This document shows positions 17,859-37,398 of a stretch of DNA of 64,000 bases, one piece after another. Position 1 is the first letter of the stretch. Each line of letters opens with the position of its first letter. The notes under the pieces were generated by a model. That model was given only the letters and a program-made list of their open reading frames with translations. It ran no database searches and had not been told where the DNA came from. This DNA comes from an uncultured Spirochaetota bacterium (GTDB taxonomy: Bacteria; Spirochaetota; Spirochaetia; SZUA-6; Fen-1364), in assembly GCA_963781885.1 (NCBI GenBank), contig CAWAHW010000002.1, forward strand, positions 608,001 to 672,000, given 5' to 3'. Position numbers and translations under genes: made by a program.

Positions 17859-17932
17859 GGTGGGTGTAGTTCAATTGGCAGAGCACCAGACTGTGGATCT
17901 GGAAGTTGTGGGTTCGAGACCCATCACCCACC
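17859..17932 (+). tRNA. tRNA-His (GTG), G-1 included
   Basis: Cloverleaf, anticodon arm CCAGA-CTGTGGA-TCTGG, TTCGAGA T-loop, C discriminator. Confidence 0.95.
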
Positions 17933-18036
17933 CATAGCGTGCCGAAGGCGCGCGAGGGCGGGTAGGCCGCGCGAGCCCGACAGCCGTTGCCACGCAACGG
18001 CAGAAGGGCCACAGCGGGAAGGTAACATGGACTCGA

Positions 18037-18110
18037 GCGTCCGTAGCTCAGTTGGATAGAGCGCCGGGCTTCGAACCCGTAGGCCGCAGGTTCGAGTCCT
18101 GCCGGACGCG
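18037..18110 (+). tRNA. tRNA-Arg (TCG)
   Basis: Acceptor GCGTCCG/CGGACGC, anticodon loop CTTCGAA, GGTTCGAGTCC. Confidence 0.93.
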
Positions 18111-18155
18111 ATTGAAAAGAAGGTGCCACGAAACTGCGCGGGCACCGCGCAAGAT

Positions 18156-18317
18156 ACCGTGGCCGCAAATGCCACGGATTACCGTGGCCGCAAATGCCAC
18201 GGATTACCGTGGCCGCAAATGCCACGGATTACCGTGGCCGCAAATGCCACGGATTACCGTGGCCGCAAATGCCACGGATTACCGTGGCCGCAAATGCCAC
18301 GGATTACCGTGGCCGCA
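18156..18317. repeat. Tandem palindromic array, 25-bp unit ACCGTGGCCGCAAATGCCACGGATT, 6 full copies plus one partial
   Basis: Identical units read directly from the sequence; no spacers. Confidence 0.97.
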
Positions 18318-18335
18318 CTGTGGGTTTGACATGAC

Positions 18336-18408
18336 GGGCCGCTAGCTCAGTTGGTAGAGCAGAAGACTCTTAATCTTCGGGTCGCAGGTTCGAGTCCTGC
18401 GCGGCTCA
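18336..18408 (+). tRNA. tRNA-Lys (CTT)
   Basis: Anticodon arm GAAGA-CTCTTAA-TCTTC; canonical D and T arms. Confidence 0.95.
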
Positions 18409-18476
18409 ATACGATGAAAGGGAATCGCCAGGGCACCGCGTCTTGACGAGTCCCGGCCGTCGTGGTTACTATCCAG

Positions 18477-18560
18477 GCGAGAGTGGTGGAATTTGGCAGA
18501 CACGCCAGACTTAGGATCTGGTGCCGAAAAGGCTTGAGGGTTCAAATCCCTTCTCTCGCA
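18477..18560 (+). tRNA. tRNA-Leu (TAG)
   Basis: Anticodon arm CCAGA-CTTAGGA-TCTGG, long variable arm. Confidence 0.95.
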
Positions 18561-18574
18561 GTGGGAGAGCGCAC

Positions 18575-18647
18575 GCGGGAATAGCTCAGTTGGTAGAGCT
18601 CCACCTTGCCAAGGTGGATGTCGCGGGTTCAAGTCCCGTTTCCCGCT
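18575..18647 (+). tRNA. tRNA-Gly (GCC)
   Basis: GCGGGAA/TTCCCGC acceptor, anticodon loop TTGCCAA. Confidence 0.95.
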
Positions 18648-35612: not shown

Positions 35613-36467
35613 ATGGCATCTTGCGACGAGCTGTCAGGGGGAGTGGAGCGCTTGGCCGCGCTCATGAAGGGGAAGAATGTCCTTGCGCTGAGCGGCGCCG
35701 GGCTCAGCACGGAGTCCGGCATCCCCGACTACCGGGGGCCCCGCTCGATGCAGCGGCGCACGCGACCCATCTATTACAAGGAGTTCGTGGAGAGCGCGAC
35801 GGCACGCGCCCGGTACTGGGCACGCAGCACGGTCGGCTGGCCCACGGTGGCTGCTGCCCGGCCCAATGCGGGTCACGTGGCATTGGCTGGTCTGGAGCGC
35901 GCCGGCGCGCTCAGCGGCGTGATCACGCAGAACGTGGACAGGCTCCATCACGCGGCGGGAAGCACCGTCCTGGAGCTGCACGGCAGCCTTGCGGACGTGG
36001 TGTGCCTCGCCTGTGGGGCCGTCGAGGCCCGGTCGGACCTCCAGGAACGCGTCCTTGCCTTGAATCCTCAGTGGGCGGTCGGCGTCCATCGCGCTGCATC
36101 GGCTGAGCCGGACGGCGATGCCCGGGTGGAGCCGCCGGCGGACGGATCGTTCCTCATACCCGACTGCCTGCAATGCGGCGGCATGCTGAAGCCTGACGTG
36201 ACGTTCTTCGGCGAAAGTGTTCCCCGCGAGCGGGTGGAGCGCGGCTTTGCGATGCTCGCCTCGGCGGACGTACTGCTCGTCGTCGGCTCGTCTCTGGCGG
36301 TCTTCTCAGGCTATCGTTTCGTCGTGCGCGCCGTGGACGAGGGAAAGCCTGTGGCAATTGTCAACAACGGCCCCACGCGGGGAGATCCTGTTGCCACCGT
36401 GCGCATCGATGCCATGCTTGGTGAGGCGTTGCCACGGCTTGCGATGGCGCTTTGTGCTTCCGCTTGA
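35613..36467 (+). CDS. NAD-dependent protein deacylase, Sir2 family (class II/SIRT4-like)
   Basis: GAGLSTESGIPDYRG, ITQNVDRLH, HGS, two CxxC, KPDVTFFGE. Confidence 0.92.
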   Translation: MASCDELSGGVERLAALMKGKNVLALSGAGLSTESGIPDYRGPRSMQRRTRPIYYKEFVESATARARYWARSTVGWPTVAAARPNAGHVALAGLERAGALSGVITQNVDRLHHAAGSTVLELHGSLADVVCLACGAVEARSDLQERVLALNPQWAVGVHRAASAEPDGDARVEPPADGSFLIPDCLQCGGMLKPDVTFFGESVPRERVERGFAMLASADVLLVVGSSLAVFSGYRFVVRAVDEGKPVAIVNNGPTRGDPVATVRIDAMLGEALPRLAMALCASA

Positions 36468-36492
36468 CACCGGCGCCGTTCGGTGATAATCT
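36464..36492 (+). promoter_or_regulatory. Sigma70 promoter driving an intergenic RNA
   Basis: TTGACA-17 bp-TAATCT with extended TG. Confidence 0.7.
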
Positions 36493-36587
36493 CCTGCCAG
36501 ATTTGATTGTTCTGGAGCCGCCTCTCTGATCTCGTCGCCAACGCGCGAATTGTGCGCTGGCAGAGGTGGCGCTTCGAAACTGAAAGC

Positions 36588-36633
36588 AAGCCATCGCTGC
36601 CACGGTATACAGTGCAGGATGGCTTTTTTATTT
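36588..36633 (+). terminator. Intrinsic terminator-like hairpin inside the candidate RNA
   Basis: AAGCCATC...GATGGCTT followed by TTTTATTT. Confidence 0.65.
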
Positions 36634-36731
36634 CCCCGTGCGGGCTCACCGCGTTGCGGCACGCCTGCACGGGCACTCCGTCCGCGGGCGGAAATCCACG
36701 AGCCTGCGAAAGCAGGGAAAGGAGGTGCGTG

Positions 36732-36779
36732 GTGAAGAACGATCAAGACATGCCTGACCAGAGGTGGTCCGGCATCTAG
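36732..36779 (+). CDS. Possible 15-aa peptide MKNDQDMPDQRWSGI
   Basis: AAGGAGGT at 36719-36726, GTG start, TAG stop. Confidence 0.3.
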   Translation: MKNDQDMPDQRWSGI

Positions 36780-36795
36780 ACGGTCAAATCTGTCG

Positions 36796-36838
36796 TGGCC
36801 GCCCCGCAACTCCGCCCGGAGCGGAAGGGGGCGGCCAC
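36796..36838. terminator. Hairpin between convergent transcription units
   Basis: GTGGCCGCCCC/GGGGCGGCCAC perfect 11-bp stem. Confidence 0.55.
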
Positions 36839-36839
36839 A

Positions 36840-37398
36840 CTATATGCGGGCAAGCTCGCCCGCCATTGCGGCAGTTGAGTCCCGTATCGCCTTGATCTTG
36901 TACTCCCGATTCCACCTGTTCACCGACACCATGTCGAAACGACGCGCCCCGACATGCTGGGTGAGCCGCTCCATGCTCGCCAGGCAGCTCACCGCGCCAT
37001 TGCCCGGAGCCTCCCGCCGCTGCAACCAGGAGGAATGGCTTTCCCGCCAGCCGGCTGTGCTCTCCCGCGGTCGCCTCGCACCGGCGCAGGCGGTCGGTAA
37101 ATGCCTTTGCCGATTCGCTCATCTCCCCCCAGTAGACGGGCGTCACGAGCACCACGGCATCGGCGGCGCAAATGTCCCGGTGCACGGCCTGGAAGCCGTC
37201 CGCCACCTGGCACTCGTGCGTCTTGTTGCAGGTGCCCCAGCCATCATTGCACGCGCGGCAGTTGCCGACGCCGGCATCGTTGATGCGGATCTCCCGCGCG
37301 TCGACGCCTGAGCTGCGGGCGCCTTCGAGGGCAGACTGCGCGCAGGCCGCGGTGAGCCCATCCTTGTTGGGGCTGCTGCTGAGAACAATGATCTGCAT
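36840..37398 (-). CDS. Iron-sulfur flavoprotein/flavodoxin family protein, one indel near 37004
   Basis: SSPNKDGLT, CRAC...C...C, TPVYWG; C-terminus continues in frame 36840..37025. Confidence 0.82.

Follow-up and report, generated by a model that had tools for sequence, protein, structure and literature searches.

We describe here an RNA element found in the DNA of an uncultured Spirochaetota bacterium (NCBI GenBank assembly GCA_963781885.1, contig CAWAHW010000002.1, positions 608,001 to 672,000 of the forward strand). The window, as we call this whole stretch, is 64,000 nucleotides (nt) long, and the unit in question occupies its positions 36464-36845 on the + strand, between convergent genes. 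The unit is very probably a real, conserved RNA gene of an undescribed family, and it appears to represent a new RNA family. Across lineages its parts follow the same order, namely promoter, 5' arm, P1, T1, H1, H2, Shine-Dalgarno site (SD), open reading frame (ORF) with H3, stop codon, 3' arm and T2. Its helices covary, its 3' arm has two mutually exclusive pairings, and its short ORF is maintained. An earlier inspection of the letters alone, here called the sequence-only reading, had proposed an unannotated, promoter-driven and structured + strand RNA at this place, a description that our analysis bears out; the promoter, the arms and the hairpins that it named (a U-tailed, an 11-bp and a GAAA-loop hairpin) are all present where it placed them. 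Beyond that reading, we found a 15-codon ORF (36732-36779) behind the SD, and we recognized 36795-36838 as the unit's own terminator. The parts of the unit are as follows.

36464-36469, + strand: -35 box TTGACA of the predicted promoter
36484-36492, + strand: predicted extended -10 element TG-A-TAATCT (TG at 36484-36485, TAATCT at 36487-36492), 17-nt spacer from the -35 box
36498-36520, + strand: 5' arm of the clamp (core 36498-36510, extension 36512-36520), pairs with 36770-36792 and covaries
36517-36570, + strand: P1, long irregular hairpin with GCCGCCTCT as its 5' strand (-29.5 kcal/mol, z -3.0)
36589-36633, + strand: T1, terminator-like hairpin GCCATC...GATGGC with U run (-19.8 kcal/mol, z -3.9)
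36635-36673, + strand: Hx, 11-bp hairpin inserted between T1 and H1 in a lineage-specific manner
36678-36691, + strand: H1, hairpin CCGUC-CGCG-GGCGG with self-complementary apical loop
36703-36716, + strand: H2, hairpin with GAAA loop
36717-36727, + strand: Shine-Dalgarno site GAAAGGAGGTG, directly behind the GAAA hairpin
36732-36779, + strand: mini-ORF, start GTG, 15 codons (VKNDQDMPDQRWSGI), stop TAG at 36777-36779
36750-36775, + strand: H3, hairpin within ORF codons 7-15 (-15.0 kcal/mol, z -3.0)
36770-36792, + strand: 3' arm of the clamp, made up of the end of the ORF with its stop codon and the 13 nt that follow
36779-36794, + strand: L3, local hairpin GACGG-TCAAAT-CTGTC of the 3' arm (-5.7 kcal/mol), exclusive with the clamp
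36795-36845, + strand: T2, terminator with 11-bp stem GTGGCCGCCCC/GGGGCGGCCAC in a GC-rich hairpin (36795-36838), and its tail

Conservation and distribution of the element

The full-length element is single-copy in its genome, and BLAST against relatives recovered further copies both within the genus and in three more genera of the family. From 10 sequences, a covariance model of the conserved core was derived (R1; 118 positions); it matched 11/25 genomes of the family, the own genome included, with all 4 genera represented, and 17/92 genomes of the order, spread over 4 of 8 families (by family: f1 10/24, f6 3/21, f5 2/8 and f4 1/2; f7 0/24, f2 0/5, f8 0/5 and f3 0/2). In a sample of 151 genomes from the class, R1 gave only weak matches and nothing convincing outside the order; the best of these (29 bits, L056) lies inside a coding region, lacks the architecture, and was rejected. 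Furthermore, GTDB species genomes and metagenomes were searched with a degenerate pattern over SD, ORF and stop codon. Among the 22 matches in species genomes, 19 belong to metagenome-assembled genomes (MAGs) named Spirochaetaceae, Spirochaetia, Spirochaetales, Spirochaetes or Spirochaetota, and R1 likewise matches all 19 (in two cases weakly, at 24 bits); the remaining three, in a Flavobacteriaceae MAG, a Methylomirabilota MAG and one other MAG (L068, L071, L084), have no R1 match and were dropped as chance. The metagenomes yielded 23 contigs with the pattern, 17 of which match R1 (one at 24 bits, identical to a genome copy). After removal of duplicates, the working set comprised 35 distinct copies, and so far the element has been found only in uncultured high-GC Spirochaetota of soil, peat and wetland. 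One MAG (G005) carries two versions, 91% and 84% like the window (L063/L009 and L077/L021), both sitting after the same upstream gene end, which more likely reflects two strains binned together than a duplication.

Pairing of the named helices was assessed in two alignments. The first, made with plain MAFFT from 25 full-length copies (A4), has the helices paired in 79.8% of cells, compared with at most 44.7% when the partners are slid by 1-3 columns, and 0/500 shuffles reached the observed pairing or covariation score. A model-fitted alignment of the core with 32 distinct rows (A5), which leans towards its own structure, gave 88.8% of cells paired versus at most 45.5% when slid, with changes on both sides at 8/19 pairs. 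Individually, H1 is paired in 94% of cells and H2 in 97.9%, the latter with both-side changes at 4/5 pairs, and H3 is paired as well (all in A5); T2 reaches 92.9% in A4, with double changes at 4/11 pairs.

The sequence-only reading had named a confident match to a known Rfam family as one result that would speak against a new RNA. Rfam 15 at gathering scores gave no match in the region, the matches of the whole window being five tRNAs elsewhere, and none on 36300-37000 at E<=10. Nine homologues compared with Rfam gave sub-threshold matches only, for instance BjrC68 at 24.3 bits (cut-off 39) and sbrA at 22.4 bits (cut-off 45). ARAGORN reported neither a tRNA nor a transfer-messenger RNA (tmRNA) on 36301-37000; with this, and with an SD and an NTG start codon in 35/35 copies, tmRNA was rejected as an identity of the unit. 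A canonical tmRNA (RF00023, 157 bits) is present elsewhere in the genome. In the full-text literature we found no description of such an element, though subscription journals and supplements could still hold one, and passages from a paper on 224 motifs (PMC5737381) mention Spirochaetes for the ldcC motif only.

The clamp and its local alternative

As the sequence-only reading had noted, the two ends of the RNA pair with each other, a pairing that we call the clamp: CAGATTTGATTG (36498-36509) is complementary to CGGTCAAATCTG (36781-36792), and the helix extends through TCTGGA/TCTAGA and GCCG/CGGC. Homologues keep this pairing via compensatory changes. In A4, the clamp shows both-side changes at 3/13 pairs, e.g. 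GC 9/AU 6 and UA 11/CG 7. When the first 34 nt of each copy were paired with the region around its stop codon and compared with shuffles, the duplex energies ranged from -20 to -41 kcal/mol, and z was <= -2 in 26 of the 29 copies that have the promoter. Two of the three failures have a hairpin inserted between stop codon and 3' arm, which put the arm outside the test window, and the third (L099) has no 5' arm at all. In L070 and L096, a perfect hairpin of ~37 nt sits exactly between ORF stop and 3' arm, with arm and T2 retained behind it, which makes these copies natural insertion mutants of the switch region.

For the 3' arm there are two alternatives, the helix with the 5' arm or the local hairpin L3, and both pairings covary, so that the claim of mutually exclusive structures holds in this form. 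L3 is paired in 89.2% of cells, and one of its pairs shows 10 double changes. Column 447, which lies in the 3' arm, reads UA7, UG6, AU5 and CG4 against the 5' arm, and AU7, UA5, GC3, GU3 and CG2 against its local partner in L3. A single nucleotide thus tracks two exclusive partners, which is the best evidence here for selection of both states; the stop codon belongs to both. A further claim, that GCCGCCTCT has three possible partners, stood in part: all three are complementary to it, but only the first, in P1, is used in the predicted fold, and its pairing with the SD or the ORF hairpin is confined to the window's genus and not kept in other lineages.

That the pairing works as + strand RNA is in line with our calculations. 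Folded as + strand RNA, 36498-36792 reaches -144.3 kcal/mol (z -6.76, 0/200 shuffles as good), whereas the - strand folds less well (z -4.96), and the clamp includes two U-G pairs that would be A-C on the opposite strand. These results also bear on the idea of a feature at the DNA level, i.e. a mobile-element remnant, a miniature inverted-repeat transposable element (MITE), a repetitive extragenic palindrome (REP) or chance complementarity. Such an origin would fit termini that form an inverted repeat, a patchy occurrence within the genus and the dispersed repeat inside T2, but the element is single-copy, its G-U pairing works on one strand, its + strand folds better, and promoter, SD, ORF and terminators are all kept in a single orientation; we therefore give it a negligible chance. 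A MITE or REP was rejected in particular, as the genome holds one full copy and only 36807-36830 is repeated.

Promoter and presence in RNA libraries

The unit has a predicted near-consensus promoter of the sigma-70 type, and its RNA is predicted to start at about 36498-36500. A consensus promoter scan did not list this TTGACA-17-TAATCT promoter because TAATCT matches TATAAT at 3/6 positions only, and its support comes from conservation instead: a regular expression (TTGAC-N16-19-[T/G]AnnnT) finds it at the same relative place in 29/35 distinct copies, and 2 of the 6 misses are cut off upstream.

In a word search of public runs, six RNA libraries contained small shares of the window. Four metatranscriptome runs (X6, X16, X17 and X18) gave one contig each that is 90-95% like the element, i.e. 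from relatives. The X6 contig (peat) spans 36498-36735 and starts at 36495-36498, 3 nt ahead of the predicted start at 36498; those of X17 and X18 (wetland) span 36574-36712 and 36569-36720, and that of X16 covers 36497-36894 together with 30 nt of promoter sequence, running ~55 nt beyond T2. All four contigs cross T1, and those of X6, X17 and X18 end inside the element. The contigs speak for presence in RNA libraries, strand, level and true ends not being given by them, and uncovered parts as well as small word shares in other RNA runs are uninformative either way.

Shine-Dalgarno site and mini-ORF

The AGGAGG of the SD is invariant in 25/25 rows of A4 and ends 5-6 nt before the start codon in 34/35 copies. 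Its unpaired probability is 0.15-0.70, compared with a whole-RNA mean of 0.28-0.39, and its partners in minimum-energy folds vary from copy to copy. A conserved anti-SD partner was rejected since the partners are unlike among copies, and the sequestration of the SD that the sequence-only reading had brought in from toxin mRNAs did not hold; in the predicted folds this very strong ribosome-binding site is largely open.

The start codon of the mini-ORF is NTG in 35/35 copies (GTG 18, ATG 14, TTG 3, CTG never), and an in-frame GTG at 36729 offers an alternative start in the window. The ORF is 15 codons long in 34/35 copies, the single indel being a 6-nt in-frame deletion (L069), and it ends with TAG or TAA in 35/35 although the surrounding bases vary; the other two frames hold stops in 23/35 and 19/35. 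Codons 2-6 are rich in A and, in the predicted ensembles, for the most part unpaired; codons 7-15 hold H3. One lineage shows a compensatory change in H3 from GACC/GGTC to GTCC/GGAC, which alters the residues from PD..SG to PC..TG. Indeed, the peptide is unconserved, with Pro8 and Gly14 as its only fixed residues. From these patterns, translation of the mini-ORF is probably under selection, and the peptide itself, as far as the comparison of copies can tell, is not.

Other readings of the same stretch have to be weighed here. A pure non-coding RNA would leave GAAAGGAGGUG and the "ORF" untranslated and use them to bind a partner, for instance the 30S subunit through an 8-11-nt match to the 16S tail, or CsrA at ACGGA/AAGGA. 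The peptide is poorly conserved, the nucleotides, those of the H3 loop included, are almost fixed within the genus, and the strongest conservation falls on the SD block. CsrA is encoded in the genome, and the two conserved ANGGA motifs, which are the only ones (ACGGA at H1 and AAGGA in the SD), lie ~33 nt apart, a spacing that would suit a CsrA dimer. Nevertheless, the start varies between ATG, GTG and TTG yet is always a start, the stop is kept in 35/35 copies amid varying neighbours, and the sole indel is in frame, which leaves us doubtful of a purely non-coding role. As for CsrA, no more than two GGA motifs are conserved, and the upstream of the two lies half buried in the stem of H1. CsrB-type sponges carry far more than two GGA motifs, and a CsrB/RsmZ-type sponge was rejected on this count, as it requires many such motifs in loops. 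The idea that Hfq reads the U run of T1 was set aside, as the genome (92.55% complete) yielded no Hfq.

Conversely, the unit might be an ordinary small-protein gene, with the 15-residue peptide as its product and the folds setting stability and yield. The ORF is maintained behind an optimal ribosome-binding site, and the pattern P8-(D/C/E/R)9...G14 recurs in all peptides. However, residues 2-7 and 10-13 change freely even among close relatives, the GCC/GGC stem of H3, in which compensatory changes alter amino acids, accounts for the fixed Pro and Gly, and there is far more conserved RNA structure than a 48-nt ORF needs; we consider this explanation improbable.

The sequence-only reading had pointed to type I toxin mRNAs in the style of hok and aapA, which would be inert by fold-back until processed. 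Such mRNAs would share with the unit a 5'-3' fold-back over the end of the ORF and alternative pairings of the same segments. Type I toxins, though, are small, hydrophobic and membrane-active proteins of about 20-60 amino acids, and the analogy broke down on the 15-codon hydrophilic ORF with its poorly conserved peptide: read directly, all peptide versions are rich in D, E, K, R, N and Q and lack a hydrophobic stretch. Moreover, the SD is not consistently sequestered, and the consensus scan listed no promoter-like site on either strand, a scan that also missed the unit's own promoter. Taken together, a toxin-antitoxin-like mRNA is very unlikely.

Hairpins and putative internal terminator upstream of the SD

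P1 keeps its position among lineages and varies in sequence, which argues against an aptamer. T1, defined by rule as a stem of 5 bp or more with 4 or more T behind it, is present in 32/34 copies with enough upstream sequence, and the two misses have a longer hairpin by eye; its U run counts 4-9 T across copies. By its sequence T1 looks like an efficient intrinsic terminator, and since it lies upstream of the SD, the ORF half would be made through read-through only. When each RNA was folded up to just before the 3' strand of T1, the T1 5' strand was paired over 6-9 nt in 14/28 copies with an upstream segment that otherwise forms the P1 3' strand. In these predicted folds, the layout around T1 resembles the classical 1:2/3:4 versus 2:3 arrangement, which is suggestive only. 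The mention of attenuators by the sequence-only reading is thus supported as regards an antiterminator-like alternative, but not as regards a downstream gene to regulate, of which there is none.

A cis-regulatory leader of a neighbouring gene, be it attenuator or riboswitch, would account for an internal terminator with such an alternative in 14/28 copies and for an ORF of leader-peptide length. Against it stand T2 directly after the ORF, a position of the ORF downstream and not upstream of T1, and neighbouring genes that are unrelated among copies and mostly convergent, so that we grant it hardly any likelihood. Both special cases were rejected: a leader-peptide attenuator, as the ORF lies downstream of T1 and the next gene is convergent in 11/15 contexts, and a riboswitch, as the P1 sequence is unconserved, no downstream gene is conserved and no Rfam match was found.

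Hx is absent in most lineages outside the genus, where 1-10 nt separate T1 from the core. Most copies carry CGCG as the apical loop of H1, three carry UGCA and another three UCGA; together with the closing pair the loop reads CCGCGG, CUGCAG, CUCGAG or GUCGAC, all of them self-complementary. The loop is palindromic in ~26/35 copies, ambiguous in three, and non-palindromic or expanded in six from one lineage. Loop changes that keep self-complementarity are what a kissing-loop homodimer would show; we take this sequence pattern as a lead, not a finding.

Terminator T2 and neighbouring genes

A hairpin with T-rich tail lies downstream in 32/35 copies, and the tail in the window is weak (ACACTATAT). 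The loop of T2 and the genes on either side of the unit add the following features.

36807-36830, + strand: dispersed repeat in the T2 loop, ~20 short matches elsewhere in the genome, not part of the RNA family
35613-36467, + strand: SIR2-family gene, upstream neighbour
downstream, - strand: FMN-reductase-like gene, then aconitase, convergent neighbours

Near-identical matches to the T2-loop repeat occur on several contigs of the genome, and the repeat recurs in the genomes of relatives; in one sequence (L007, 1492-1611) it stands in tandem with a 40-42-nt period (2.9 copies, 98% match). The repeat has the look of a REP-like element inserting into terminator loops.

The genes flanking the homologues belong to unrelated families and differ among contexts. 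Behind T2, the next gene is convergent in 11/15 distinct contexts, co-directional in 3/15 and unknown in 1/15; these varied, mostly convergent neighbours indicate a stand-alone gene and not a leader. The sole synteny seen involves three genomes of the genus (L040 and L044 among them) in which the element adjoins the 3' end of the aconitase gene in convergent orientation. The window differs from the L040/L044 context in that the FMN-reductase gene intervenes between element and aconitase. The ORF of this gene (36784-37398, - strand, 204 residues) matches FMN_red over its residues 1-132 (profile positions 1-120 of 152), and its remaining C-terminal part, without match, extends across T2 into the 3' arm of the RNA. 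A second frame on the - strand (36840-37025, 61 amino acids) ends at 36840, just behind T2, and as an alternative C-terminal frame it has no Pfam match; the gene may carry a frameshift or an assembly error. Apart from this neighbourhood, five tRNA genes are clustered within 800 nt at 17860-18647 of the window (+ strand; Rfam tRNA, 55-72 bits).

A translation-gated switch as working model

How might such a unit work? We propose that the stand-alone gene, transcribed from about 36499, yields a structured RNA of ~300-340 nt. T1 would let only some transcripts pass, giving a short RNA (5' arm, P1 and T1) and a long RNA. The long RNA would then fold back, and the clamp would hide both of its ends. 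Starting from the strong SD, ribosomes would translate the mini-ORF, whatever peptide it encodes, and on their way to the stop codon they would have to melt H3 and the clamp. The 5' arm would thereby be freed and the 3' arm could flip into L3. In this translation-gated switch, the state would be set by ribosome traffic, and the output would lie either in the 5' segment, free or hidden, or in how long the RNA lives. The model accommodates every part of the unit. For the whole of it, gating by T1 together with a clamp opened by ribosomes, we estimate a probability of roughly 0.4, and we therefore offer it tentatively.

Several observations weigh against it. Translation, the two isoforms and a target in trans are all inferred, as are partial termination at T1 and the switching itself. 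The element is missing from 14/21 genomes of its own genus (the own genome included), some of them 95-97% complete, and is therefore dispensable. Four copies (L099, L073, L065 and L080) lack a recognizable 5' arm and in three more (L091, L087 and L074) the arm is weakened, so that the clamp is common, not universal. Since Pro8 and Gly14 fall on the GCC/GGC base of H3, the ORF-like look is partly forced by RNA structure. The antiterminator of the window is weak, at -11.6 kcal/mol (z -1.3) versus -29.5 for P1 and -19.8 for T1, and the alternative occurs in half of the copies. With so weak a structure, termination would be the default unless the P1 5' strand were occupied, which is again suggestive only. 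Finally, the contigs from RNA libraries could stem from contaminating DNA, and that of X16 also covers 30 nt of the promoter and ~55 nt past T2.

A further version builds on the palindromic loop of H1. The RNA would form a homodimer through this loop, in which one molecule's 5' arm could clamp its partner's 3' arm, and ribosomes on the peptide-neutral ORF would open the clamp. The freed 5' arm and the P1 strand would feed back on T1 of nascent copies. Such a self-contained "ribosome-read" device, an autoregulating sensor of translational capacity made of RNA only and without protein-coding output, seems to us a long shot.

Structured RNAs that are neither riboswitches nor classical small RNAs (sRNAs) are rare finds. 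In the unit described here, a maximal ribosome-binding site and a mini-ORF neutral as to its peptide are combined with a covarying clamp, a self-complementary loop and an internal terminator, and the unit may provide a concrete case in which translation itself acts as a conformational signal for an RNA. Its hosts are uncultured spirochaetes of peat and wetland, for which almost no RNA biology is known, and the element seems abundant enough to be assembled from metatranscriptomes. In addition, the family is small and well defined, and with its 35 distinct copies it is suited to in vitro work.

Comparison with known systems

The element shares single traits with several known RNAs. Like tmRNA, it is structured, with paired ends and a short internal reading frame; tmRNA, however, has no SD or start codon and carries a tRNA-like end. 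With trpL-type attenuators it shares an ORF of very few codons, hairpins that compete and an intrinsic terminator, around which half of the copies show the 1:2/3:4 versus 2:3 layout, but its ORF comes after the terminator, and it has no regulatory codons and no downstream operon. Multimers made of RNA only have reportedly been found for ROOL, GOLLD and OLE. As in RNAs that dimerize by kissing loops, such as the dimerization initiation site (DIS) of HIV-1, the apical loop of H1 is self-complementary, and most of its variants likewise. On the other hand, one lineage of the element has non-palindromic H1 loops, and no sequence or Rfam relationship links the element to DIS, ROOL, GOLLD or OLE.

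In hok and aapA1, type I toxin mRNAs fold back from 5' to 3' end and offer alternative partners to one segment. The element resembles them in its 5'-3' pairing over about 20-28 bp, in its exclusive alternative pairings, and in a short ORF within a compact stand-alone unit. Unlike theirs, its peptide has 15 residues, is hydrophilic and unconserved, its SD is not hidden, and its clamp covers the stop codon rather than the start region. As for a counterpart to their antisense antitoxins, the consensus scan of the element showed no promoter-like site on either strand, the unit's own promoter having escaped the same scan. Dual-function sRNAs such as RNAIII/hld, SgrS/SgrT and SR1/SR1P are likewise stand-alone and structured, with their own promoter and terminator and a short internal frame. 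Their peptides are conserved and active, whereas in the element the act of translation alone seems to be kept, and no base-pairing target is known for it. Although it shows neither the toxin-like peptide of the first class nor the conserved peptide of the second, the unit would, by analogy, work most like the type I toxin fold-back mRNAs and the dual-function sRNAs.

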